Part shown: positions 3,591 to 60,350 of the stretch, piece by piece
Position numbering within the stretch: position 1 is the stretch's first letter
Layout of the letters: every line of letters begins with the position of its first letter
Source: Nitrosopumilaceae archaeon
GTDB taxonomy: Archaea > Thermoproteota > Nitrososphaeria > Nitrososphaerales > Nitrosopumilaceae
Length of the DNA stretch: 64,000 nucleotides
Assembly: GCA_965208905.1 (NCBI GenBank)
Contig: OZ242365.1
Span: forward strand, 480,001-544,000
Reading direction: 5' to 3'
The notes under the pieces: model-generated
What the model saw: the letters and a program-made list of their open reading frames with translations, nothing else
The model's database searches: none
Told to the model about the DNA's origin: nothing
Made by a program: the position numbers and the translations under genes

Positions 3591-4091
3591 TTACCTTCCC
3601 AGTCCACCGAACGCACCACCGGCCGCACGAACCGCATTTATTCCGGTGTGGCCGGCCTGCACTAAGGCGCGTATTGCTCCGGATATGGCCGGCATGTATG
3701 CTATCAAGCCGCGAATTAGTAGTATCGTATAGACGCCTTGTATAATTGCGGTTATGGGCCATGGGACTCCAAACACGGTTAGTATCTCAAAAGCCATTGT
3801 ACCGGACGCTAGTTTCAACATTTCTACTGACATCGACAACCATAACTCTAGTGATTGTATCGTTAATTGTAGAGAGTCGCCTTCTATTTCGCCTAAGGCT
3901 ATCATTTGTTGTTGTATGGTGTTATCCTGCATGGCTGCCCATATTGCAGAGATTTGCGGGCCGGCGGGGGTGATTCCGTCCATAGTCGTTATCGTAATGT
4001 TTAGTGGGCCGGCTATCAGTATGTCCACTGCGGCCAGCGAACCGGATAGAATATACATAAAAAGAAATACCCTTAACCAATTATCTTTCAT
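3591..4091 (-). CDS. Membrane protein, possible virion envelope/structural protein
   Basis: N-terminal and C-terminal hydrophobic segments; last gene of a coupled four-gene run. Confidence 0.65.
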   Translation of the reverse strand: MKDNWLRVFLFMYILSGSLAAVDILIAGPLNITITTMDGITPAGPQISAIWAAMQDNTIQQQMIALGEIEGDSLQLTIQSLELWLSMSVEMLKLASGTMAFEILTVFGVPWPITAIIQGVYTILLIRGLIAYMPAISGAIRALVQAGHTGINAVRAAGGAFGGLGR

Positions 4092-4258
4092 TGGCCGGCC
4101 TCCTGCATAGATACATGTTCCTGGTAATTATGCACGGCCTCAAGTATTCGGCGGTTATAGCCTTCTGCGTGATAATCATTCATTCTGCGTTTTGTATCTA
4201 TGCGCTCCTCTAGGTATTGCTCATAGTCTTTGAGGGTGGGTTCTATATGTTTGCTCAT
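4088..4258 (-). CDS. 56-aa hypothetical protein (not in ORF track)
   Basis: MSKHIEPTLKDYEQYLEERIDTKRRMNDYHAEGYNRRILEAVHNYQEHVSMQEAGQ; ATGA overlaps at both ends. Confidence 0.6.
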   Translation of the reverse strand: MSKHIEPTLKDYEQYLEERIDTKRRMNDYHAEGYNRRILEAVHNYQEHVSMQEAGQ

Positions 4259-4497
4259 GGTAACATACCTCTTACCTCATCTCTTAGTTGAGTTGACGTT
4301 AATGGCTTGAGTATTTTTTTGTATTTTATGGGGCGTCCATTAGATATACCTGATTTGGCCATCTCTATGACTGCGTATGATTGTAGTATGCTATCATGGT
4401 CTGATCTTGTACTGTCTGCGAGTGCATCAATGTATAATGCTTGTATCTTTTCGAGTTTTGTTAAGTCTCCATATATCTTGTCTGTTAGTTGTATCAT
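4255..4497 (-). CDS. 80-aa hypothetical protein
   Basis: ATGA overlaps with both neighbours. Confidence 0.6.
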   Translation of the reverse strand: MIQLTDKIYGDLTKLEKIQALYIDALADSTRSDHDSILQSYAVIEMAKSGISNGRPIKYKKILKPLTSTQLRDEVRGMLP

Positions 4498-4895: not shown

Positions 4896-7649
4896 TTATT
4901 CCCTGGCCGCCAGTACTTCGGCTATCTGCGGCCACAGCGGGCTGCTGTATGTATTGGCGTTTGTTCTGGCCTCGGCTGCGGTCATTGGGTTGTCGTGTGT
5001 GGCTTCACCAAAGGCGGCCAGTACCCTGGTCCAGCGGTCGACATGGTCTGCGCCGTGCTGCGTCTGGGACGCCAACTCTTTGACGCTTGCAACAAGCGCG
5101 GGGTCTATTGTGGATTCTGTGGGCGGGTCCTGCGGCGGGTCCTGCGGCGGGTCCTGCGGCGGGTCCTGCGGCGGGTCCTGCGGCGGGTCCTGCGGCGGGT
5201 CCAGTTGCGGGGGGTCCTGTTCTGCCGCCGCTTCAAGTAGTGTCAATATGTCGGCTATCTGCGGCCACAGCGGGCTGCTGTATGTATTGGCGTTTGTTCT
5301 GGCCTCGGCTGCGGTCATTGGGTTGTCGTGTGTGGCTTCACCAAAGGCGGCCAGTACCCTGGTCCAGCGGTCGACATGGTCTGCGCCGTGCTGCGTCTGG
5401 GCGGCCAATGCGGTCACGTTGGCGACAAGCGCGGGGTCTACTGTGGGCGGGTCCTGCTTCAACGAGTTGGCGGTTAATTTCTGTGCGGCTCCGGCGTCCT
5501 GCACGTCTACGGTCCAGGTGGAGAACAGGCCTAACGTGTAGCCGTCGCCGGGGTTTATCGTGAGCGTTACGTTGTTGACGTCTATGATGTTGTCGTTTAT
5601 GGTCGGGACCTCAAGGGTGTACGAACCGATTGGGGGTATCTGTATGATGCGCCAGCCCATATCGGTGGCGTTTAGTATATCTCCAGTACCGGACAGCGTG
5701 ACGTTGACGGGTAGGGGCGCCTGTGGCGCCGGGGATGCGTTTATGCCGAATGATACGGGGTCGCCTTCCGAGCCGCCGCCGGATATGCCGATTGATACGG
5801 TTGGCGGCGGGGGCGGTGAATTGTTGGTGTGGGGACTGTCCGCTACCGTGATTGTCACGGTATCTGCGGATCCGACCCGGTAGCCGGTGCCCGGTTTTAG
5901 AGTCAGCGTGATGGTACCGGCTGGGTTGTCGTCGTTGCCGTTGGTCTGTGTGACGACGTTGCCTCCCGTATTCTGATAACCATCCTGTAAAATTTGCTTG
6001 TTGGAAACGAGGGTAATAGGATTACTGCTGAGGACACCTCCCGTGACGCTTATGCCTACGCCGGGATGGAGTGTAGTACAGGCCAAGTATTCTGATTTGA
6101 TCAGTCCGGCCAAGTTGACCGTGTCGCCTTCCGTCACCGTATCGGGAATGATGCTTTTGTCCAACCACAAGATAGGGCCGTCCGGATGCGGGCGGTGCTC
6201 GTTCGGCTGCATACGCTTGGTGGTCGGGGTGTTCTCCTTTATCTGGTAGCCGGGGCCGTCAATCAGCGTGACGTCTATCCAGTGGTTGCTGGCGGGGTCG
6301 CAGTCCCGTACCGTGTCCATTACGTAGAAGCCGGCACTGCCGGTCATGGCGAATGTTCTATCGTGTCTGTTGGGGCTGCTGAGTATGTGGCCGCTGTCGC
6401 TGGTGCGGAACTTTATTTTCAGAAAACTACCCGTATCCGCTGTCAGGAGGGTTTCTCCAGGCCTCAATGTCGATGCACCGGTATGCGGCGGGTCCACGTG
6501 CACCGAGACCATCACCTGGCGGCCCTCAAAGTTGTTAACCAGCTCACCCAGGGACACGCACGGGTTGTCTTTTGTGCATTCCTGGGGCGGTGGCGGTGGC
6601 GGTGGCGTGTCATGCGGGCCGGGGTCGTCGTCTTGGATTATGTGGGTGATTATCGACGGCTCGCCTATAATGTAGTCGTCGCCCGGCAGCAACTCAATGG
6701 TAAAGACGCCGTCGGGCTCGTCGTGCGAGTCGTCGTTCGTTAATATGTTGAACACAAAGGGTGGGTATACCCACTGCACACCAGAGGGCTTAAAGGCGCT
6801 GAATGACTCAATATAGCCTTGGGTTATGGTGGCGTTGTAGTCTACTCTAGGGAAGCCTCCGTAGGGTACGCCGGGGGATGCGAGTAACATATCAACACGG
6901 AAAAACCCACCCTCCGGCCCCAGATCGCCTGCCAGTTTGAGGTAGACAAGCGGCTTGAAACGTACGTCCGTGTCCGCTGCGGCGACCTCGAATATGGGGG
7001 ATATGCCGTAAGAATACCTGGCGGTCGGTTCGCCCTGGCCGTGCTCGTTTCTGCTGCCGGCAAGTTCACCCGGTATGTCGCCGGCGTAAAAGTCGTTATA
7101 GTTGTCGGCAATGCGGTCACCGCCAACCCAATATATGGGAATTCCCGTCCCCTCCGTATAGGTGTGGCTCCGGACGCCTTCGCGGTCAGAGGCGCTCCAT
7201 TTCAGTACACGGAAGTGATCAGCCATAGGGCGCAGCGGCGACTCCTCATTTATGGGATAATAACCCCTTGTGGTAGATAACGAAAAACAGTCAGTGCCAT
7301 CGGTATTCTGAATCTCGTTTTTCTTATCAAAGGTGACAAGTTGAAGGCGGTAATCAATCCCATTAACTATGCAGTTCCCATCTTCAAAATTATACATTCT
7401 GTACAGGGTTTGCAGCTTGTACTCGATCCGGATGGCATTTTTGATCATATCCTGTATGTCACCATCGTTAGGAAAACCACCCACGTCCGGCGTGAACAGC
7501 AGCCTAAACTGATCCCCAACATTCAGATCTGCCGGGGCATACTCCCAATCCTCCGGCACAGACCACACGTTATAGGCGTGCGCTTCATGGGGGGCCCATA
7601 CAGCAAGCGCCGCGATCGCCACAATAACCGTACATACAACGGCTTTCAT
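4896..7649 (-). CDS. Large secreted/surface protein with Calx-beta-like domains, Pro-rich linkers and a duplicated C-terminal helical domain
   Basis: Signal peptide ending AHA; repeated 'D...D...T(I/L)xLxPGxGY' Calx-beta-like motifs; poly-Pro linkers. Confidence 0.8.
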   Translation of the reverse strand: MKAVVCTVIVAIAALAVWAPHEAHAYNVWSVPEDWEYAPADLNVGDQFRLLFTPDVGGFPNDGDIQDMIKNAIRIEYKLQTLYRMYNFEDGNCIVNGIDYRLQLVTFDKKNEIQNTDGTDCFSLSTTRGYYPINEESPLRPMADHFRVLKWSASDREGVRSHTYTEGTGIPIYWVGGDRIADNYNDFYAGDIPGELAGSRNEHGQGEPTARYSYGISPIFEVAAADTDVRFKPLVYLKLAGDLGPEGGFFRVDMLLASPGVPYGGFPRVDYNATITQGYIESFSAFKPSGVQWVYPPFVFNILTNDDSHDEPDGVFTIELLPGDDYIIGEPSIITHIIQDDDPGPHDTPPPPPPPQECTKDNPCVSLGELVNNFEGRQVMVSVHVDPPHTGASTLRPGETLLTADTGSFLKIKFRTSDSGHILSSPNRHDRTFAMTGSAGFYVMDTVRDCDPASNHWIDVTLIDGPGYQIKENTPTTKRMQPNEHRPHPDGPILWLDKSIIPDTVTEGDTVNLAGLIKSEYLACTTLHPGVGISVTGGVLSSNPITLVSNKQILQDGYQNTGGNVVTQTNGNDDNPAGTITLTLKPGTGYRVGSADTVTITVADSPHTNNSPPPPPTVSIGISGGGSEGDPVSFGINASPAPQAPLPVNVTLSGTGDILNATDMGWRIIQIPPIGSYTLEVPTINDNIIDVNNVTLTINPGDGYTLGLFSTWTVDVQDAGAAQKLTANSLKQDPPTVDPALVANVTALAAQTQHGADHVDRWTRVLAAFGEATHDNPMTAAEARTNANTYSSPLWPQIADILTLLEAAAEQDPPQLDPPQDPPQDPPQDPPQDPPQDPPQDPPTESTIDPALVASVKELASQTQHGADHVDRWTRVLAAFGEATHDNPMTAAEARTNANTYSSPLWPQIAEVLAARE
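4918..5401. repeat. 151-bp identical duplication (4918-5068 / 5251-5401) separated by a 12-bp tandem array (5122-5202, DPPQ x~7)
   Basis: Direct comparison; array unit ggcgggtcctgc. Confidence 0.92.
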
Positions 7650-7732
7650 GTTTCATGGGGGGGGGGGCAACTATTTTAGTTTATCGGTTTACCGGTTTAG
7701 TATGCCATGCGTTGATCTGGCGTCAAATAGGG

Positions 7733-7801
7733 GGGGGGGGGTATTTGGGGCATATTCGGCCTCGGCGCCATTACATGCCGTGCTGCATGTTGCGGGTCTT
7801 G
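7733..7801. repeat. ~69-bp direct repeat, copy 2 (G12 run at 7730-7741)
   Basis: Matches 4770-4838. Confidence 0.92.
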
Positions 7802-8075
7802 ATGTATCGGCCTCGGCGGCCTGTGTTGTATCTTGTCGAGTTGGGATTGTGCAGGACGCGCCTTAGTGTCATCCTGACACACTCTCTGTATGCATCGGCT
7901 GACTTGTGTACCGGGTTGGGTCGTATGACGTTTTGTGTTTGGAGTACGTTTAGGACGTGGAAAATATACGACATGTATAGAACCGTATAATGAATACTAA
8001 TTTAGGTATGTCGTTGGCGTCATGAGTACGATTTGACCAAAAGTGATAATTACATTAGATTGCATATGACATGTC

Positions 8076-8309
8076 ATGCTTTCAATAGTTGAGCTTGTCA
8101 TACTGGGTGGGTTGTTGAGTGTGGGCAGTATCGAGGATCGCGATAAGGCGTTAAATGAATGTCAAAGTCTCGGACATATGCGATATAAGACAATCATAGA
8201 TATTGTACCTGGGAAGGGTAAAATTACAAAACGGACCGAGTTAGAAATAATACAGTATCGACTCGACACAATCCGAAAGGAGATAAAAGATTATCAAAAA
8301 TCAAAATGA
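8076..8309 (+). CDS. Small hypothetical protein
   Basis: 77-aa ORF with hydrophobic N-terminus. Confidence 0.5.
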   Translation: MLSIVELVILGGLLSVGSIEDRDKALNECQSLGHMRYKTIIDIVPGKGKITKRTELEIIQYRLDTIRKEIKDYQKSK

Positions 8310-43846: not shown

Positions 43847-45169
43847 TCACAGATACTCTGATAGATGCACATTCTCAATGTTGGGTATACGGGCAACCTC
43901 AAAACCTTCGGGTCGACGGTCCAGTGGTATTGTGGCATCTATGCCCATCTTGGCTGTCTTGAGATTTTTTTGATCACTAGACGGATCCAGACTCGAGCCC
44001 CGCACATTCTGTTTTATTATTATGTCCTTGTCTGCCTGAAATCTGGTGGCCAGAGCGTACTCGACAGCTTCGGCATCATCGACATCTATATCATCATCCA
44101 CCACTGTTACGCACTTTAAGGACCTGTGCGCATCAAATGTCTTCTCTATTATCTCTCTTGCATCAGACTCGCTCCTCTTCTTTATACTTACTACTGCATG
44201 TAACCAGTTACAACCACCATTACTCAGGGATGCGGATGTGGCTATCGTACCGTCTAATGCACCATTTATCTTTGACTCCACAGGCATGCCCATCAACAAT
44301 CGGTGTTCTGCGTATCCGGATAGTACATCATGATATATTGGATCATCCTTTGTATGTACAGACTCGACCTCAAAGACAGGCTGCTGACGTTTGTAGTCGT
44401 ATGTCTGTAGCATCTCCACCATCCACTCTTCGTGTGTTACATCCTGCAGTATGCGCCCTTGTATGACTATCTCGGTCTTCTCGGGTACGTGCAGGCCTGA
44501 CCATTCCAATGGAGACATCTTTAGTGTGCCGCCGGTTATGGCATTGGCTATGCCCATCTCATCGCAGCCCCACTGGGCCTGATAGGCTCCAGCAATCAGT
44601 ATGGATGGATGCACCCCCACTGCTATGGCCACCCTCAAATCCTCGCCGTGCTCTTTGGCATATACATAACATCGGTGTAGATGCCGCCCATCCACCATTC
44701 GTATGGAAAAGTGCTTATCATCTATGGGCATCATTCTATGAACCGAAGAGTTTTGCTGGTGGGTGTCAGGGTTTGGTGCAAAGACCAACGAGGATGTTAT
44801 GAATGGTCCGGGCTCTTTCTCAAAGTGCGTTACTATGGGTAATACATCTGTGGTCTTGTATGTATTCTTCATAAAGTGGCCATGTCCTGTAACATCAGGT
44901 GGTGTTGCGCCACGGATGGCCATCATAATACGCTGGTGTATCTGAGTATCAGCAACACCGAGTGCTGCGGCAAACATCTGACGATTACCCACAATGTTGG
45001 TTACCAATCTACAGTCATCATATCCATCAATACTCTCAAAGAGTAGTGCTTTTTTGGTCTGGGCTGTCAATGCAGCAATCTCATACTTTACAGAGACATT
45101 ACGCTTTATTCGATGTAGTAGTCCTTTATCTTCTATATCACAGATGTGTCTTCGTATATCATCACTCAT
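43847..45169 (-). CDS. UbiD-family prFMN decarboxylase (possibly anhydromevalonate phosphate decarboxylase)
   Basis: N.S.HR, VDDDID, GSSLDPS, KMGIDAT. Confidence 0.88.
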   Translation of the reverse strand: MSDDIRRHICDIEDKGLLHRIKRNVSVKYEIAALTAQTKKALLFESIDGYDDCRLVTNIVGNRQMFAAALGVADTQIHQRIMMAIRGATPPDVTGHGHFMKNTYKTTDVLPIVTHFEKEPGPFITSSLVFAPNPDTHQQNSSVHRMMPIDDKHFSIRMVDGRHLHRCYVYAKEHGEDLRVAIAVGVHPSILIAGAYQAQWGCDEMGIANAITGGTLKMSPLEWSGLHVPEKTEIVIQGRILQDVTHEEWMVEMLQTYDYKRQQPVFEVESVHTKDDPIYHDVLSGYAEHRLLMGMPVESKINGALDGTIATSASLSNGGCNWLHAVVSIKKRSESDAREIIEKTFDAHRSLKCVTVVDDDIDVDDAEAVEYALATRFQADKDIIIKQNVRGSSLDPSSDQKNLKTAKMGIDATIPLDRRPEGFEVARIPNIENVHLSEYL

Positions 45170-45498
45170 AATGCCATCATATCGAGCTCACTCATAATAC
45201 CTTTTGCCATCTCTGCAGATATATTCTGTATGTTAGCCGACAATAACACGATACCGTTTAGTCGTGTAGCCAGTCGCTCTGCTGCCAGCCTCATAAATAA
45301 TGATTCGGACTTTGAGGGTATCACCTGAGTGGTGGTGGGTACAGACTTGTTATACAATGATGCCACAACCGCTCCTAACCGCTCCTCGCCTTCGGATATG
45401 GAGACGAAGCAACCGTTCTGAAACTGTAGTATTCGTAAAGAAAAAGTACGTCCCTCCACACAGACGGACTTTTCTCCAAGTCCGTGTGGAGGGTTCAA
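45166..45498 (-). CDS. Proteasome assembly chaperone 4-like protein
   Basis: F.NGCFVSISEG..RLG; LAAERLA. Confidence 0.6.
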   Translation of the reverse strand: MNPPHGLGEKSVCVEGRTFSLRILQFQNGCFVSISEGEERLGAVVASLYNKSVPTTTQVIPSKSESLFMRLAAERLATRLNGIVLLSANIQNISAEMAKGIMSELDMMAL

Positions 45499-45503
45499 TA
45501 CCC

Positions 45504-45749
45504 TTAAACCTGCGCAGCTAGAGACTCCACCTTTGAATCGGCTTCTGCCTCTACTCTGGCACGTAACTTAGCCTTGTACTTGAGGTTTCTAGGCTTTGTT
45601 CGTAGTCTGTAACCGCAACATGGACACCAGAGACCTTCCCATTTGATAAAGATCTCACATATCTGGCAACGACGTTGTCCTGATGCATATCTTCCGGTTC
45701 CAACCGGCTTTTGGGCTTTATGTCTTACGCATATTCCTTTGCATGTCAT
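45504..45749 (-). CDS. Conserved thaumarchaeal Zn-finger protein
   Basis: MTCKGICVRHKA...RCQIC...CPCCGYRLRTKPR. Confidence 0.85.
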   Translation of the reverse strand: MTCKGICVRHKAQKPVGTGRYASGQRRCQICEIFIKWEGLWCPCCGYRLRTKPRNLKYKAKLRARVEAEADSKVESLAAQV

Positions 45750-45932
45750 CTTTGTACTTATATTAGAATTACATGGTATTTAAAATTGAATTAGAAATTT
45801 TCACTGAATATGACAATATTTTTTACATATATTGGAAGTTATAAATTCACAAAAAAAAATAGTGCATGTAAAACCATCAAATTCTACATTTTTAACATCT
45901 TCCGTGGAGGCAAACAATTTGGTTATATAAAT

Positions 45933-46976
45933 CTACCTCTGATATAGTGTCTTTTCGATATTCAAGTTCAAAACAATCTCTGCTATGTCTACAGAGTACT
46001 CTGCTATACGTCGAATATTAGCTGCTATCTCGCGGGTCCGGAATACTATCTCACTATCCCATATGCCATCTGTTATCTTGTGCAGTTTTTTATCAAACTC
46101 GGATATCTGCGCAGCTTTGATGATGGTTGCCTCGGCCTGGTGGTAGTCGTCCTTGAAGAGTGCAAGACACGCATCATCTAGTACGGAGAGCGCAAATGTA
46201 TTCATATCTTGTAGTATGGCTATGGCTTCAGGATCTATCTTTTTATCGAATTCCAGGACATCTCTAGCTATCAATACGGCGTGGTCACCCATTCGTTCGA
46301 TACATTTTACTAGTATTCTGTATCCAAGGCAGCTTCGAGCGTTCTTGAATCCTATCTCCTTTAGTATATGATCGTTTTGTATAGCTATCTTTAGTTGTCG
46401 TATTATGTAAAAGCCGAATCGGTCTATCTCATCATCCATGTTGGTGACTTCGGTTGCTAGCTCCTTGTTGTTCTCCTGTACTGCTGATAGTGCATCCCGG
46501 GAGACAGACTTTGCCAAATGCACCATCCTCTTGAATGCGCCCTCAACTGTCAGCTCCAACAGGTTGATGAGTACCTGTATTGTAATTATTGTGGAAGAGT
46601 CAGATATTATCTCAGAGCCCATCAGAATTCTTCTTACTGACTCTTTGATGTGCAGACGCTGGTTTGGCCGCAGCCTATTGGTCTTTGGTTTGACATGTAT
46701 GGTTTTGAATCCCATAAAGTATAGTGATATGAGTTTGCGGGTTATGGATGGGGGCTTTTCGTTGGGATCAATCTCTATTGTGGCTGCCTCTGCGTGTGCG
46801 GTCTTTGGCTGGACGCTGGGCGGATATAGTATGAGGTTGGTCGAGCCACTCTTGGATATGCGAATTTGATCTCCCTGCTTTAGACCCAGCTCCAAAATCC
46901 AATGCTTTGGGAGTGATATTATATATGAGGATCTGCCGGTGTACTGTATCTTTCTAGTTTCGTACTTCTCCGTCAT
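45933..46976 (-). CDS. phoU: AbrB-domain phosphate uptake regulator, PhoU family
   Basis: RKIQYTGRSSYIISLPK.W; DDEIDRF; IERMGDHA. Confidence 0.9.
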   Translation of the reverse strand: MTEKYETRKIQYTGRSSYIISLPKHWILELGLKQGDQIRISKSGSTNLILYPPSVQPKTAHAEAATIEIDPNEKPPSITRKLISLYFMGFKTIHVKPKTNRLRPNQRLHIKESVRRILMGSEIISDSSTIITIQVLINLLELTVEGAFKRMVHLAKSVSRDALSAVQENNKELATEVTNMDDEIDRFGFYIIRQLKIAIQNDHILKEIGFKNARSCLGYRILVKCIERMGDHAVLIARDVLEFDKKIDPEAIAILQDMNTFALSVLDDACLALFKDDYHQAEATIIKAAQISEFDKKLHKITDGIWDSEIVFRTREIAANIRRIAEYSVDIAEIVLNLNIEKTLYQR

Positions 46977-47097
46977 TATACATGAATGTATATTGGTCTA
47001 TATAGAATAATCGGGTCTCCCACAAGTTTTGGTGATGTGTGGAAAGTTTGAATCTTTGATCTTTTATCACAATAGACATCACTACATTAGGAGGGTC

Positions 47098-48337
47098 ATG
47101 TATAGGAGTGACCAACATTATCCTCTAAGGATATTGGACGCAAAAAAACTGACCATTAAAGATCACCATCCCCCTACACTAAAACCCGTATGCCAAAATC
47201 AGATTCCTGCTACATTACATCACTATTCTAACCCCTCAAAACCTACGTGCCGTAAAATGATTCCCTGCGGTTCTCTGTACTGTAAGGCTTGCCGTCATGT
47301 CTGGTGTGCCCAAAAACGTGGCATTATATCCTATGGTGCTAATATACTGCAAGACTCTCAAGGATACTTTGTTACATTGACCATACAAGGCTCTAAAAAT
47401 ATGCTGAATCGTCTCATGGATGCCTACAGACAGTTCCGCAAAAACGTCCTGAATCGTTACTATAAAGGCTCATACTATGTTACCATGCTTGAATTCGGTA
47501 CAAAATCTACAAAACGTCCTCATCTACATTTATTGATATATCCGCTTAGTGACCTTCCCACCTGCGGTAAACGTTCTCTGTATTACAGAGTCTACATGGC
47601 AAAAAACCCTCTATCCGGATGCTTTACTGATGCAAAAACGAATAACTGGTTCTGGTCTTGGACGTGTCTTTCATATACAAAAACCCCGTCATGGCTCCGC
47701 TGGTGCTGTCTCCTATGTTGGTAAATACCTCTCAAAAGTCCCTCGTAAAACTGCTAAAATCAACCGTGCTAATACTCGAATGTTCAACTGCTCTAGGAAT
47801 TGGCCTCGCCTAAGACCGTTACCCATATTCTTCTACTCTAACTTAAAATTCGATAAGGGTCATGAGTATGATCATCTTCCCAGTACGCCTCCTCTACCTA
47901 ACTCTCCTCAAGAATTACTCTACATGCGTAAAAAATCCCTCAAAGTATGGACAAAACCCCTCTTTGATAAAATACCTCCTGAAAAACTCTTCTTGATGCT
48001 AAAACACTTCAAGTACTCTTACCAAAAATACTATTACGAAAAGCATAAAATTGAAAAATATGTCTATAAACAGGAAAAATTATACGATGCTCAACTTAAC
48101 GAGTGGCTCTCTGTGTTTAATATGTCTGGTTTGCTGTCTGCCTCTGTTATTGACTTGCCTAAGATTCCGTCTTCTATTGATGTTCTTCTTGCACTAACGC
48201 CTTTCTTGGATGAAAAAGATACTGCTCTTGATAACTTCCGTGAGTGTGGCTATTATGGTTCTGTTACTCTATTGCACTGGCTCTCAAAACGTGAGAACTT
48301 TGACTATGTACATAAACTCGTTTGTACTTCCTTATGA
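47098..48337 (+). pseudogene. Rolling-circle replication HUH endonuclease (Rep), split by a frameshift near 47575-47605
   Basis: CGSLYCKAC Zn motif, motif I YFVTLT and motif II RPHLHLLI in ORF 47029-47724; motif III YVGKYLSK in ORF 47549-48337. Confidence 0.85.
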
Positions 48338-48523
48338 TATACCGTGCTGAATGTTACGTTGCTTGGTCTGGCGTGTTCGCCTCTGTATGATATTAGTACA
48401 TGTGATACAACATTGTGTGTTACTCTCGATATACATCTTACATCGTTCACATCTCATTACACTATATGACGTTATACACTTGGTCATACATCTATGGATA
48501 AAAATAATAAAAATTTTTATCAA
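48332..48523 (-). CDS. Small Zn-finger protein
   Basis: RCERC...CCITC...RR; loosely like the Zn-finger at 45504. Confidence 0.5.
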   Translation of the reverse strand: MIKIFIIFIHRCMTKCITSYSVMRCERCKMYIESNTQCCITCTNIIQRRTRQTKQRNIQHGIS

Positions 48524-48528
48524 ATTAG

Positions 48529-49755
48529 TTATTTCCAGTATTCGCTTCTTACTATATGTGTTAGAATAGCAGATCTTATTTCAACAAGAATATCTTGTCT
48601 GTCGTCTTCTGGTGTGTTTGTCAGTATTGTTTGTAGTAATTCTAGGTACTCTGTGACTGTGGGATGTTTCATGAATTGATCTATGTCTATTGTTGTCGTT
48701 GTCGTGTTTGTTGTCAGAATAAGGTTTGTGTTGACTTGCTCTTTTGTATCAATATCTTTTGCAGAAGCACCGCCATAAACAATAGTATTATCAAACTTGT
48801 TTGTGTTATTTGTATCAATATCTTTTGTGTGGTCTATGTAGTCATTGTCCTTGCCTAATATTTTCTGCTCGTTTATTGGCTCTGTCATACGTGGCACATT
48901 GATGTTACGTGCCTCCCAATAATCTCTAACATCATTAGCGTGTACTGTGTTCATTATGTGGTCTGGGTCTATATGGTGTGGTAATCCTATAAGATGCCCA
49001 AATTCGTGGGCTATTGTGTATTCTATCGCTGGCGCGCTTAGTAGTGTCTGTTGCTTACCTACATTTACATCTGTAAATAGTTGAATTGTACATTGTTCCT
49101 CATCAAATAGGCATCCTGGAATAGCGTTCCCCATTTGTCTACCGTCTCCTATGTGTTGTTGGATTACTATGTCCGCCTGTAATCTACTGTCTGTATAACT
49201 GAATGTTATATTGTTGATGTCTGCCCATTTGTCAAAACCTGCCTCTACGCCTGTTGTTACTATATTTTTGTAATTTGGTGGTAATTCTCTGTCTCGTGGT
49301 AAGTCTATTATCGTATATTTGTACTCGTCTTGTACTGTATTTACGTACCAATATCCGCATAGGCATTCGTGATGGGCTTGATATTCTTCTTCTGTTTTAT
49401 TTATACTACTCTTTACATTGTTAAGATATCTTTCCTCAGTCTCTTTATTCCCACATTCATCTCTTCGTTGATTAAGGGCGTTTATTTCATTTATTTTTTC
49501 TACTGATGGTGCAGTCCAACCATGAGAAATCCTAAATAGTGTATTTATATCACATGTTAGCCAGTGGCTCTCTACAAAACCATCATACCTATAATGTGCT
49601 TCTATGTGGTCTTTTGCCTTTTGTGTTTCCATTACAAAATTTCCTTCTGCAGTCTCTATCCATATGTGATTGTCTATATGGTCAGCATAGGCTGTCATGA
49701 CTGTTGTTAGTGCTATTGTTGTTACCATTGCTATTGTTATTATTGTATTGTTCAT
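48529..49755 (-). CDS. Secreted matrixin-like (metzincin, M10-type) Zn metalloprotease
   Basis: Signal peptide ending AYA; HEFGHLIGLPH followed by Met-turn HIM. Confidence 0.88.
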   Translation of the reverse strand: MNNTIITIAMVTTIALTTVMTAYADHIDNHIWIETAEGNFVMETQKAKDHIEAHYRYDGFVESHWLTCDINTLFRISHGWTAPSVEKINEINALNQRRDECGNKETEERYLNNVKSSINKTEEEYQAHHECLCGYWYVNTVQDEYKYTIIDLPRDRELPPNYKNIVTTGVEAGFDKWADINNITFSYTDSRLQADIVIQQHIGDGRQMGNAIPGCLFDEEQCTIQLFTDVNVGKQQTLLSAPAIEYTIAHEFGHLIGLPHHIDPDHIMNTVHANDVRDYWEARNINVPRMTEPINEQKILGKDNDYIDHTKDIDTNNTNKFDNTIVYGGASAKDIDTKEQVNTNLILTTNTTTTTIDIDQFMKHPTVTEYLELLQTILTNTPEDDRQDILVEIRSAILTHIVRSEYWK

Positions 49756-50075
49756 TGTGGTCTCTCCTGTCCTTTTCCTTCTTTCATGTTTTTTTCTATA
49801 ATAAGTGCTCCCTTCATTAATCCAATTTCATGACTGTTGTCTATTGCTTCTTGGACTATACGTTCTGGGCTTATTCCTTTGTGCTTTCCTATCGCCTCTA
49901 CTTGTTTGTATAATTCGTTACTAATTTCTATAGGTTTGTATGTGCCGTATTCCGCTTTTATTCCTTCTCTGACTATGTCGTCTGTTTTTTTGTTGCCTTG
50001 TGCTTTGTATTCTTCTAGTGCTTTGTGTGTGTCTTCTGTTATCATTATCTCTCTTGTTGCTTTCTCTTTTGTCAT
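49752..50075 (-). CDS. Tandem ribbon-helix-helix-like regulator
   Basis: Two units (EIMITEDTHKALEEY..DDIVREGI; PIEISNELYKQVEAI..ERIVQEAI); ATGA overlap with the protease. Confidence 0.6.
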   Translation of the reverse strand: MTKEKATREIMITEDTHKALEEYKAQGNKKTDDIVREGIKAEYGTYKPIEISNELYKQVEAIGKHKGISPERIVQEAIDNSHEIGLMKGALIIEKNMKEGKGQERPQ

Positions 50076-50290
50076 TGTTGTTGCTTGTGCTTTGTGTGTA
50101 TTATGTTATTTGTCCTTCAAACTAATACCCACAGTCTCTAAATTCCTGTGCTTGTGGGGAGGGACCAGCAATCGTAAATATTGGGAATTATATACAAAAG
50201 TACACAACCCCAATTCTGAGAGTTAATGCCTGAACCACGGATCGCGTCCATACAACTCCCCTTAAATACTAGCATACCGTATTATATATC

Positions 50291-51642
50291 ATGATACGGG
50301 TAGTTAAGGTACCGCTACGGAGGGATGTGTTGTTTGCAGAGTGGGCGCACCGCACGAATCATGCGTCAAGATATGTGTACAACCGCGCCGTATCAGAGTA
50401 TTTGTTTGGTGGCGAATATAGGAGAGGGTGGTAGTGGACATCCTGCAGCCCTTCAAACTGCCGGGCAAGCTGGATTTTACATCAGGTATGCTGGACGATG
50501 ACTACCATACATATGATTTTGGGCCATCAAAGAATGTATTAAAGTACGGCATGTTCAAGCAGCTTACGGAGTGGCGCGCTGAACATGCATGGGTATCTGA
50601 CTTGCCTATGGTGTTTGGCAGGGGCGCCATACAAGATGCCTCTATCGCATGTAGAAGAGTTGTAGATGACAACTCCGGCCATGCGCCATACCGCCGCAAA
50701 GACGGCCGCATCATACTATACAGTGTAAATCCGCCTGTACGAAAAGGTGAGCACACCATACATATCCCCGGATATGGTATTGTAGAGACCGCCAAGCCCA
50801 TCGATGTATCGTGGGACATGCGGTCATTCAAGATAGTTGATGTCACCAAACGGGTGGACAAGCATACAAAGCCGTCAGACCACATGTTTGAGCTGCATAT
50901 TGCCGTGCGTGTACCGGTCGAGCCACACCATAATACAGGTGTAATGCGTGGCGTCGATGTGGGCGGCAAGCACCTGGCAGTTACTGTCGACACAAATGGC
51001 AATGTTACAATACACAACACCCGCCATAGAGCAATCCTGCGGGAGATTGACGCGCTAAAGAGTTTGCGCGACCGCAAGACACGGCATGGCCGGAAGTGGC
51101 ATATATTGAATGACCAAATAAAGCGGCTATACAGGAAGGCCAACAACATAGCCGCGAACACGATAAATCAGACGATTGCGCAGATAACTAGTGGTGTGGA
51201 CGCAGTCGTGGTCGAGTCGCTCTCCGTAAAGGACATGACCACACATGGTGGGAATTACAAACGCGCTATGAACCGTTCAATGCGGGAGAACCATGTTGGG
51301 GAGTTCCTGCGCAAGCTTGCGCAGTGGTGTGAGATACACAACATACCGCTGTTGGGGGCATCTGCCAAATACACGAGCCAGACGTGCCATGTGTGTGGTC
51401 ACGTAGACTCAGAGTCGCGTATATCACGCGACAAATTCATTTGCACAAATTGTACCAGGGTATTCCACGCGGATGTCAATGCCGCCTGGAATATTCTGTA
51501 TAGGGCGGCGGGGAACGTCGTCCTAAGACGGCCGGGGCACAAGGAGGGCTACAAGCCAACACCTTCTATGCTCCACTCCATACAACGAAGTCGTCAGAAA
51601 AGGCATGAGTGTACAGCCGAGGCTGTGTACTTTTGTATATAA
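50291..51642 (+). CDS. tnpB: RNA-guided endonuclease TnpB (~450 aa), 1-bp frameshift near 50420-50430
   Basis: N-terminal MIRVVKVPL...SRYVYNRAV from ATG 50291; in ORF 50428-51642 RuvC-I GVDVG, RuvC-II VVVESL, YTSQTCHVC...CTNC, RuvC-III HADVNAAWNIL. Confidence 0.9.
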
Positions 51643-51647
51643 TTCCC
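51495..51647 (+). ncRNA. Putative omegaRNA scaffold overlapping the tnpB 3' end
   Basis: Position between RuvC-III and element end, as in known TnpB loci; 9-bp hairpin with two G-U pairs at 51609-51630; boundaries inferred. Confidence 0.5.
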
Positions 51648-51676
51648 TAAATATTTGGGTGTATTACATATGAGTT

Positions 51677-52147
51677 GTGGACAGTCATCATAAAATCAAT
51701 TGTACTGTTGATGCACTATATGGTGCTGGCGCCTCGGCATACATCCCCTCAGATATAACAATGACGTATTATCGGACGGGTCGTATTCGTGAGGTGTATC
51801 ATAATGGCACGCTCTTGTGCACTCTGCGTATAGATGGGGGACTTGCCATCACTCTGGACTTTGCGCGTATACTACTGCAGTGTAAGGATTTTGATGAGTA
51901 CTGTATAGAAGTAGACGATGATGCAGCTCCCTTTGTTGCCGAAGGCAAGTCGGTCTTTGCATCACATGTAGTACGATGCGGCAAGTATGTCCGGATATCA
52001 TCAGATGTGCCTATATTGTATAACAATGATGTAATAGCCGTGGGGCGGGCGGTCTTGTCTGAACCAATGATTGCAGGGTCCCGTAGGGGCGTAGTGGTAC
52101 GAGTCAGGGATAGTTTAAAAAGAAGAGGCCGCATATTCTCAACATGA
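51677..52147 (+). CDS. PUA-domain protein (archaeosine TGT C-terminal-like)
   Basis: TGRIREV...LR.DGGL; GKSVFASHV; AVGRA. Confidence 0.88.
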   Translation: MDSHHKINCTVDALYGAGASAYIPSDITMTYYRTGRIREVYHNGTLLCTLRIDGGLAITLDFARILLQCKDFDEYCIEVDDDAAPFVAEGKSVFASHVVRCGKYVRISSDVPILYNNDVIAVGRAVLSEPMIAGSRRGVVVRVRDSLKRRGRIFST

Positions 52148-53062: not shown

Positions 53063-53659
53063 ATGGGAGTAGCAACGGCTCAAGGTAGGCCCTATTACTT
53101 ATTTACTCGCTGGTTGAGAGGTTTAAATATAAAATTCGATGTGCTAAAGCCCGACGAGATACCAAACTATACCGGTGATGTTATACTCACCACCAGAGAG
53201 GAGTTCCCATCAAAGAGCGATAAAATACTCTTGTATGACGATGAGATGAAGCATGGCTCCACCATCACTTTGGTGTTGTTACTACAAAGGTGCGGCATAA
53301 CAGGTGATGATTTGATAGTGGGTATAGACCCGGGCAGGCGCATAGGCCTGTCTGTCTTTTATGGCAGTGTAGAGATAGATAGACAGTTGTTCATATCCAT
53401 AGAGAGAATGTCATCGCACATACGTCACATATTCAAGTACATCAAGTCTACAAGGCATCTGATACGTATAGGTGATGGTGATATGACTACAGCATGGAGA
53501 ATATGTAGAATGTTGGATGTCATCGATACGCCGTATAGTCTTGAGTTTGTCAATGAATCCGGAACCAGTCCTAGAACCAGACACTGCAACAGTAGAGGTA
53601 AACAAGACATGTTGGCAGCAAGAGCCATAGCCCAGAGAGATCCGTGGGTGATGGCATAA
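53063..53659 (+). CDS. Conserved archaeal RNase H-fold protein
   Basis: [23 protein letters not shown]. Confidence 0.75.
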
Positions 53660-59995: not shown

Positions 59996-60350
59996 GGTTC
60001 CTCCCGCAAGGACGGATACTATGTGTCACATCTCAACTATCTTTTTAAACATGTAAACCGTACTGTACGCTAATGGTACTACGCACATACACATTCGGCG
60101 TTATATTCCGTAAAGGGTTCAAGAAGGAGATGTTGGCCAGACAGGCCAGCATGGACAGGTACGTGTATAACAAACTAGTGGAAACCTTCAAGGAAGAATA
60201 TCGTAGAACAGGTAGAGTAAATGCGACGCAGGGTACCCTGAGAAACGTCAAGCACAGACCGGGGAACGAGATGCTCTATGCACCGTCGTCCTCTGGCGTG
60301 ACGTGTGATGTATTGTGGATGCGGGAACCCCCGTGCTTGCAGTAGGAACC
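59996..60350 (+). mobile_element. 355-bp internally deleted tnpB element with 20-bp TIRs and 8-bp TSD
   Basis: Left ggttcctcccgcaaggacgg vs right reverse complement ggttcctactgcaagcacgg (17/20); flanks ggatataa (59988-59995) / ggatatga (60351-60358). Confidence 0.82.
60073..60345 (+). pseudogene. tnpB: Truncated tnpB (N-terminal helix region joined to the 3' end of the element)
   Basis: MVLRTYTF...LARQA..DRYVYNKLV matches the OrfB N-terminus; no RuvC motifs. Confidence 0.7.

Follow-up and report, generated by a model that had tools for sequence, protein, structure and literature searches.

A broken rolling-circle Rep gene and a metalloprotease gene between insertion sequence-type ends in a Nitrosopumilaceae archaeon: a candidate defective integrated replicon

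A 64,000-nt stretch of the complete 2.21-Mb genome of a Nitrosopumilaceae archaeon (genome G000; G000:C1:480001-544000, hereafter the window) contains, between a phoU-like and a PUA-domain gene, a 3153-bp element (window positions 47014-50166, termed Rep element) in which a frameshifted gene for a two-tyrosine HUH replication initiator (Rep) converges on an intact metalloprotease gene. The element is bounded by imperfect terminal inverted repeats (TIRs) belonging to a large family of insertion sequence (IS) ends of the same genome, referred to below as the shell. Based on gene content, ends and comparison with related genomes, we propose, at a confidence just short of even, that the element is what remains of a rolling-circle replicon, integrated and now defective, which lies in an IS6-like shell and was mobilised in trans. 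The relatives named below include the congeners G001, G002, G004, G005, G006 and G009, with G005 being the nearest to G000.

The Rep gene is located on the plus strand in two pieces. Its open reading frame (ORF) starts with ATG at 47098 and runs in frame 1 to 47586, and this N-terminal part carries a cysteine cluster (47248-47307), HUH motif I (FVTLT, 47368-47382) and motif II (HLHLLIY, 47521-47541). The C-terminal part, which occupies frame 2 between 47588 and a stop at 48337, comprises motif III with its two tyrosines (YVGKYLSK, 47714-47737), an SRNWP motif and a helical C-terminal domain. The N-terminal ORF matched the Pfam family PF23343 (REP_ORF2-G2P; 3.9e-7, 30.7 bits, cut-off 27.8), and the same family was found above its cut-off in all five closest homologues (28.9-49.2 bits). 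HUH families besides PF23343, including those of the IS91 type, were not listed at E-values up to 10 for four homologues. A previous sequence-only reading of the window had described a two-tyrosine HUH Rep with motifs I to III and a Cys cluster that converges on a metalloprotease gene, which was borne out by matches above the cut-offs of PF23343 and PF00413, respectively. With regard to the Rep family, for which IS91 had been among the candidates, the result was the microvirus-type PF23343 and no IS91-type family.

Searching 1.84 billion representative proteins with phmmer yielded 14 Rep hits at E<=0.001, seven of which were at <=1e-10; one of the 14 is the annotated 208-aa fragment of the genome itself. 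Two hits, P0009 (1527 aa, seven stretches) and P0011 (2099 aa), were left aside, and P0007 was excluded from the alignments. Both Rep pieces are colinear with ten full-length or near-full-length homologues of 261-479 aa. Across 12 alignment rows, the nearly invariant columns include three cysteines, the two HUH histidines (H138 and H140) and two tyrosines (Y203 and Y207), with the HUH motif and the motif III tyrosines in the conserved order. In the fold analysis, homologue P0003 stood in for the broken protein of the window. The top structural match of its AlphaFold model (predicted local distance difference test score 85.1) was 2x3g_A, SIRV1 ORF119, to which residues 62-214 aligned with a Z-score of 8.6 and a root-mean-square deviation of 2.9 over 112 of 116 residues; this protein, titled 'hypothetical protein' in the structure entry, is presumably a Rep. 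Based on the P0003 model, an HUH fold is predicted for the Rep family. The C-terminal third of the protein (approximately 170 aa) is helical, shows unspecific structural matches and belongs to no named family. A sequence profile of Rep retrieved nothing among PDB chains, and PHROGs provided no useful match for Rep or protease. Single Rep pieces had no close relative by word-based protein search, in viral contigs or in genome contigs. Likewise, the Rep alignment A3 matched nothing in genome contigs or in 2.9 million viral contigs, and detected one distant relative (26% identity) in metagenome contigs. On the corresponding 4152-bp contig, L040, the ORFs next to the Rep relative resemble, by our reading, tail-fibre or collar proteins of phages, suggesting that virus-like elements are a further setting of the wider Rep lineage.

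Alignment with the homologues placed the frameshift that splits Rep at 47586-47588, between KRSLYY and ESTWQ. Among the public sequencing runs, X1 and X5 read as the window, X6 does not cover position 47586, and one contig of X7 carries an inserted 'AA' behind this position at a depth of 2.2; a single contig below depth 5 may represent an error. As read from the sequence, the additional 'AA' would bring ESTWQ and the following residues back into the Rep frame. Most simply, the Rep copy of the window is a pseudogene with a 2-base deletion.

The protease gene (48529-49755, minus strand, 408 aa) encodes an M10/matrixin-like metalloprotease, which matched Peptidase_M10 (PF00413) at 7e-7 and 29.7 bits (cut-off 24) and carries the zinc site HExxHxxGxxH (HEFGHLIGLPHH) at 48973-49008. 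Its ORF is intact, whereas Rep is frameshifted. The hydrophobic N-terminus followed by AYA/DH resembles a signal peptide, which makes the enzyme a putative secreted protein. Also on the minus strand, a small ORF of 107 aa (49752-50075) showed weak matches to ribbon-helix-helix (RHH) proteins, namely to the Pfam family 56B_RHH (0.047) and to repressor families of PHROGs (6e-4 to 0.035), and a word-based search found no homologue besides itself. The ORF list also includes a small Cys-rich ORF of 63 aa (48332-48523, minus strand), which matched no NCBIfam family; its putative 'Zn-finger' cysteine pattern was read by eye. Of the RHH-like and Zn-finger ORFs described previously, the former is hence represented by weak matches and the latter by an ORF without NCBIfam match. 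Word-based searching retrieved 42 homologues of the protease. Matches were found in seven of nine congeners, including a full-length copy in G002 with 55% identity. A chromosomal paralogue in G000 (L028, G000:C1:1266960-1269600) is 57% identical over the catalytic part, possesses a C-terminal cupredoxin/plastocyanin-like domain and is disrupted by an IS3-like element, itself comprising two ORFs (96 aa and 344 aa).

Rep, by comparison, is rare among the relatives. With the second ORF as query it was found in one of 61 related genomes and nowhere else, and a Rep profile matched only G000 and G005 within 401 genomes of the class. In G005, the match is located at a second locus, where a C-terminal Rep fragment converges on a C-terminal protease fragment over an AT-rich spacer, as in the window. 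This remnant (L025, G005:C1:1817000-1833000, about 7060-8210 onward) lies at the edge of a stretch without megablast match in G000; the stretch opens with a cysteine-desulfurase-like ORF and an ORF of 1077 aa and may be a defence island. Furthermore, the protease homologues P0036, P0031 and P0034 (42-44% identical) are encoded on ENA contigs of 121720, 15058 and 3534 bp, which equal in size and source those of the Rep homologues P0006, P0019 and P0020. Because of the identical sizes and source, Rep and protease homologues were taken to share these contigs, and, judged from such co-occurrence in sequence data, Rep plus protease looks like a conserved module. Eight of the 15 contigs with Rep homologues measure 2.7-3.9 kb, compared with 3153 bp for the element described here, and at least five of the 15 exceed 9 kb, namely those of P0006 (121720 bp), P0017 (52235 bp), P0008 (28073 bp), P0019 (15058 bp) and P0012 (9008 bp).

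Both ends of the Rep element are imperfect inverted repeats, each within two edits of GGTTCCTCCC[AG]CAAG. The left TIR core GGTCTCCCACAAG (47014-47026, plus strand; scored from 47013 as GGGTCTCCCACAAG) and the right TIR core CTTGTGGGGAGGGACC (50151-50166, minus strand; reverse complement GGTCCCTCCCCACAAG) are both shared with G005. The flanks AATAATCG (47006-47013) and AGCAATCG (50167-50174) are identical at six of eight positions, as previously stated, and have the 8-bp length of the target site duplications (TSDs) of the family. Inverted similarity of the left end to the right end continues weakly to about 47051, for which no null was computed, and joining the two ends head to tail results in an imperfect 30-bp palindrome. 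Inward of the right TIR, CACAGG resembles the right end of a 1.5-kb TnpB element type. A deletion derivative of this type, the mini-tnpB element (59996-60350, plus strand, 355 bp, right end at 60330-60350), is flanked by GGATATAA and GGATATGA, which agree at seven of eight positions. The resemblance between the right ends of this mini-tnpB element and the Rep element that the sequence-only reading had reported was confirmed insofar as both belong to the same TIR family (core within two edits), and its description of the left end as a decayed inverted copy also holds.

The genome of G000 harbours a large element family ending in GGTTCCTCCCGCAA[AG]G. Within two edits of the TIR core, 80 sites were counted in G000, compared with 9, 20 and 12 in three Markov-1 simulated genomes. 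By rough arithmetic, about 1e-3 chance pairs with such spacing and a 6/8 flank would be expected per genome. A scan of G000 for inverted pairs, with comparison of 8-base flanks, resulted in 18 pairs, 15 of which agree at 8/8 and three at 7/8. They fall into size classes of 355-585, 1513-1644 and 3058 bp and include TnpB-only, mini and decayed DDE IS elements, with the mini-tnpB element at 59996-60350 counted among the minis of 355-585 bp; the units of 1513-1644 bp encode TnpB proteins of two types (406 and 523 aa, PF07282). The TIR core was detected in nine of ten genomes of the genus (0-4 hits for the reversed control), and the core variants GGTCCC... and GGGTCC..., as present at the Rep element, occur in congeners. 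Beyond the terminal bases, local alignments of the 150-base ends with those of TnpB elements were not clearly above shuffles; the best one, between the left end of the Rep element and the A-type left end, scored 40 at a null maximum of 40. The 3058-bp pair (G000:C1:924780-927837) consists of a TnpB unit and a decayed DDE IS that abut, 8 bases apart. Neither of them has a TSD of its own, and the pair is enclosed by the perfect outer TSD TTAAACTC, suggesting that the outer ends moved a 3-kb composite and that units of the size of the Rep element can move. Classification of the Rep element as a miniature inverted-repeat transposable element (MITE) was considered and rejected given its length of 3153 bp, three ORFs and single copy.

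A candidate transposase for this shell was identified in G009, where a 387-aa DDE ORF matched PF13610 (DDE_Tnp_IS240) with 34.1 bits (cut-off 27). By our reading, its N-terminus is SWIM-like. The ORF adjoins an 80-base inverted arm tipped by the TIR core; the two arms are separated by 5.1 kb and lack matching flanks, and do not form one clean unit. In G000, a 1.5-kb element (926302-927837) contains a frameshifted homologue of this ORF in three pieces with 52-83% identity, and a 485-bp mini element (646148-646632) retains an N-terminal fragment of the transposase. No element of G000 with the A/B ends of this shell was found to enclose an intact DDE gene, and none of five IS1595-like loci checked there has A/B ends nearby. 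By its family match, the cognate transposase is IS6/IS240-like, and it is predicted to act on the shared ends.

Comparison with the congeners placed the boundaries of the insertion. The phoU-PUA spacer spans approximately 4.7 kb in G000 and 93-595 bp in five congeners, and is made up of two adjacent inserts in G000, namely the Rep element and a TnpB-only IS at 50183-51647. The enlargement of the spacer together with the rarity of Rep among the relatives identifies the Rep element as foreign. In G001 and G004, the spacers measure 104 and 93 bp and lack the ends. The blastn alignment of G006 stops at 47013, and the left boundary gains support from the conservation of TATATAGAA..ATCG toward phoU. 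G005, whose flanks are approximately 97.6% identical to the window, aligned by blastn at 44001-47124, 50151-50183 and from 51648 onward. This genome is devoid of the TnpB IS and of 47125-50150, and retains both ends 176 bp apart between the same flanks. A contig of run X6 shows the same joint. Since G005 has the same ends and the short spacers of G001 and G004 have none, 47014 and 50166 stand as the shell boundaries. The previously suggested comparison with an empty phoU-PUA site gave a mixed result, with spacers free of the ends in G001 and G004 and a 176-bp mini element in G005. Sharing of the ends with G005 further implies that the insertion predates the split of the two genomes. The left arm at 47027-47124 (plus strand), which comprises the upstream region and the first nine codons of Rep, is common to the mini element of G005. 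Over its left 124 bases, the mini element has 87% identity to the window sequence, which is, by our estimate, compatible with neutral divergence, and it is single-copy in both G000 and G005. Contigs of run X7 leave the window sequence at 47009, 48071 and 48504, hinting at strains with a different left junction and a different segment comprising the Rep 3' part and spacer.

The AT content of the Rep element exceeds that of its flanks. Pyrimidines prevail along its whole plus strand, across both gene orientations (purine fraction 0.412); T is enriched over the minus-strand genes, whereas over Rep the excess is of C and not of T. The previously noted T-rich skew of the plus strand applies, consequently, to the minus-strand genes, and for the element as a whole it is to be read as pyrimidine richness. 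Among 892 ORFs with 300 or more codons, whose purine fraction averages 0.544 (standard deviation 0.028), the Rep coding strand, at 0.454, ranks in the lowest 1.2%, and the skew may hint at a history of strand-asymmetric replication. No significant DNA fold was predicted for the left arm at 47027-47124 (z -0.99), the intergenic region between Rep and protease folds no better than shuffles, and a promoter and terminator scan of the element remained at chance level. None of the listed runs with the locus is recorded as RNA.

Taken as a defective integrated replicon, the element would derive from a family whose core consists of a phiX/microvirus-type two-tyrosine HUH Rep and a secreted M10-like metalloprotease. 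Its free form would replicate from an origin nicked by Rep, and the donor would be the circular replicon with its two ends abutted. An IS6/IS240-like DDE transposase would act in trans and insert the whole unit between phoU and PUA; the TnpB-only and mini elements that share these ends would owe their movement to the same mechanism. The insertion would be older than the split from G005, which kept a 176-bp mini element, and Rep would have been frameshifted later in G000. A number of results weigh against this proposal. Only one copy with these ends could be inspected, and it is decayed; its TIRs carry indels, and its 6/8 TSD is weaker than those of all 18 family pairs (7/8 or 8/8). The cognate transposase is broken in G000 and intact in the congener G009. 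In the mini element of G005, only the outer 16 bases of the right end are shared with the window; the next 11 bases mirror the left end at eight of 11 positions, unlike the right end of the window, and a 51-base stretch specific to G005 has no match in the window's element or the G000 genome. The fold predictions for the left arm and the Rep-protease intergenic region revealed no replication origin. Circular junctions, for which the sequence-only reading had suggested searching, were not present in contigs of four public runs, nor was extra depth, these contigs being uninformative on rare forms. Moreover, the Foldseek matches of P0003 to HUH domains are weak (best E-value 0.012; a Helitron transposase is among the weak matches at 0.013), and in a quick, unfinished tree the Rep-linked proteases form no single clade apart from chromosomal ones.

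The comparison between G000 and G005 fits either deletion of the cassette in G005 or its insertion into a resident mini element in G000. According to the latter scenario, which we regard as somewhat unlikely, the 176-bp mini element was there first and a circular Rep-protease replicon (about 47125-50150, 3026 bp) recombined into it, replacing approximately 48 bases; TIRs and TSD would then say nothing about how the replicon travelled. The breakpoints of the Rep cassette relative to G005, 47124/50151, do lie inside the shell, and the joint of G005 recurs in run X6. The G005 ends match each other further inward than those of the window, a mirroring that fits entry of the cassette into a resident element, and about 48 internal bases of the G005 mini element have no counterpart, and hence no source, in the Rep element or elsewhere in G000. 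As read from the sequence, if translation began at a TTG at 47134-47136 instead, the entire Rep frame would lie rightward of breakpoint 47124, which would agree with the N-terminus of P0003. On the other hand, the mini element is single-copy in both genomes, whereas MITEs typically occur in many copies; neither an integrase nor another function for such an insertion is present; CACAGG inside the right end of the window still resembles the family right end; and the Rep homologues on contigs above 9 kb hint at recurrent integration, hence at a regular mechanism. The earlier suggestion of a rolling-circle replicon captured and moved by the same TIR system is supported in part, as regards the Rep cassette, the shared ends and the 8-bp length of the putative TSD, and is qualified by the position of the cassette breakpoints inside the shell.

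Two further explanations are considered less likely than recombination into a resident mini element. Rep might have integrated itself, the ends being halves of a palindromic origin that resemble IS ends by coincidence, a view that includes a new type of HUH-Rep transposon. HUH enzymes of IS91, Helitrons and IS200/IS605 are known to perform strand transfer, and the imperfect 30-bp palindrome formed by the joined ends would suit such a process; but the ends belong to an 80-site family of elements with TnpB or DDE genes and 8-bp TSDs, a duplication that HUH transposons are not known to make. Furthermore, there is a single, broken copy of Rep but an abundance of shell elements with perfect TSDs, and PF23343 remained the only HUH family listed. 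Self-integration therefore appears very improbable, and the new HUH-Rep transposon proposed by the sequence-only reading is not supported by a shell with its own DDE transposase and 8-bp TSDs. A similarly small chance is assigned to the element being the remnant of a small single-stranded DNA virus, i.e., a microvirus-like provirus, rather than of a plasmid. In the protein atlas, the neighbours of Rep are all PF23343 clusters, of Phixviricota and bacterial origin, with Phixviricota Reps as the nearest named ones; weak tblastn matches to microvirus VP4 or replication initiators (best E-value 8e-3) and, by our own reading, the phage-tail-like ORFs beside the distant relative on L040 point in the same direction. 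Against a viral origin, neither a capsid gene nor another virion gene turned up, no structural family was found in Pfam or PHROGs for four ORFs (the two Rep parts, the protease and the RHH-like ORF; the small Cys-rich ORF was scanned against NCBIfam only), and the 2.9 million viral contigs contained no relative.

If the element is indeed a replicon that was mobilised in trans, wearing the ends of a resident insertion sequence would offer rolling-circle replicons without integrase a route into chromosomes, and cargo as different as TnpB, a DDE transposase and a Rep-protease module would travel in one and the same type of transposon shell. A more far-reaching idea, which is possible but which we are inclined to doubt, is that a family of archaeal rolling-circle replicons of approximately 3-4 kb, with a microvirus-type Rep and a secreted metzincin, itself bears host IS6-like ends, so that the circle doubles as transposition donor. 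Such a plasmid-transposon hybrid would enter chromosomes via a transposase encoded elsewhere, as alternative cargo beside TnpB. Within this archaeal lineage, it would be the first family of small rolling-circle replicons to be described, and its host-interaction protease would belong to the core and not to the accessory genes. The rare Rep lineage (14 hits in 1.84 billion proteins) adds to the very short list of replicons of ammonia-oxidising archaea. Linkage of a putative secreted metalloprotease to Rep is unusual for such small elements and makes the enzyme a candidate host- or symbiosis-related factor. Since the copy in the window is a relic, its value lies in the family and the mechanism, not in an active locus.

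With regard to the surroundings, the phoU-like gene on the left (45933-46976, minus strand) is divergent from the PUA-domain gene on the right (51677-52147, plus strand). The TnpB-only IS (50183-51647, plus strand; 50175-51655 with TSDs) lies outside the Rep element, belongs to a second TIR family and is enclosed by the perfect 8-bp TSD TAAATATT, the left copy of which abuts the right flank of the Rep element; its tnpB frame looks split near the start. The IS is missing from G005, and another contig of run X6 shows an IS-empty joint with eight ambiguous bases, from which it follows that this insertion is younger than the Rep element. Its ends define a second shell in G000 (C shell, tip GGGAATTATATAC, 77 sites), in which two autonomous IS1595-like units (2837 bp, G000:C1:1043578-1046414; 2690 bp, G000:C1:1770047-1772736), each enclosed by a perfect 8-bp TSD, occur besides TnpB-only units of 1465-1471 bp, such as 50183-51647; the sites with this tip fall into several size classes (1419, 1465-1471 and 1475 bp). 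In one of the IS1595-like units there is, by our reading, an additional ORF for a putative DNA methyltransferase. In G005, approximately 260 extra bases (L019 4925-5185, corresponding to window 53220-53227) include a 24-base perfect match to the end of the TnpB IS and are probably a mini element absent from the window. The 595-bp phoU-PUA spacer of G006 holds a GGGGAATTATATACCAAAGTACAC end (L021, about 3860-4340), indicating that this intergenic region was also used by another shell element and may be targeted preferentially.

All ingredients of the Rep element, i.e., PF23343 Reps, IS6-like shells, cargo-only units and metzincins, are known, and their combination was not encountered in the available parts of the literature, supplements aside. 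In accordance with the earlier remark that few rolling-circle replicons are known from Thaumarchaeota, the part of the published account available here reports one cryptic integrated element with a rolling-circle Rep, NitAQ6f-E2 (Krupovic et al. 2019, PMC6563490). It is likewise an integrated element of an ammonia-oxidising archaeon encoding a rolling-circle initiator; its Rep is described there as SNJ1/IS91-like and represents a different family, and neither the borders of NitAQ6f-E2 nor a protease module are mentioned in that part of the account. Like the phiX174/microvirus-type superfamily-I HUH initiators of PF23343, the Rep of the window possesses HUH motifs I-III with a Y-x-x-K-Y pair; unlike them, its family has an N-terminal Cys cluster and a C-terminal helical domain of approximately 170 aa without named family, no capsid gene lies beside the Rep of the window, and the host is an archaeon. 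A two-tyrosine HUH enzyme is also shared with IS91, ISCR and Helitron elements, which are not known to have TIRs or TSDs, whereas the Rep element has TIRs and an imperfect 8-bp flank repeat (6/8); it lacks a Pfam match to their family, and Rep is not needed for the mobility of the shell family.

The shell itself is closest to the IS6/IS26 group. For IS6 members, GG tips, '...GCAAA' in short inverted repeats, 8-bp target repeats, MITEs and, in longer members, a zinc-finger N-terminus are described in the available text of PMC7986276, and the shell shares the GG tips, the GCAAA motif, 8-bp repeats, MITE derivatives, longer zinc-finger members and a DDE ORF above the cut-off of PF13610. The Rep element differs in having no transposase, a replication module as cargo and ends with indels. 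Moreover, the same text attributes the movement of IS6 members to cointegrates, whereas the cargo of the Rep element is bordered only by single inverted ends. Regarding solo TnpB elements, the sections of Altae-Tran et al. 2023 (PMC10691335) at hand mention no case with a rolling-circle Rep and a protease as cargo. They do report inverted terminal repeats at DDE-associated TnpB loci and nearly identical ends that can enclose solo TnpB genes. The A/B and C shells described here follow the same packaging, in which inverted ends are common to transposase-bearing and cargo-only units.

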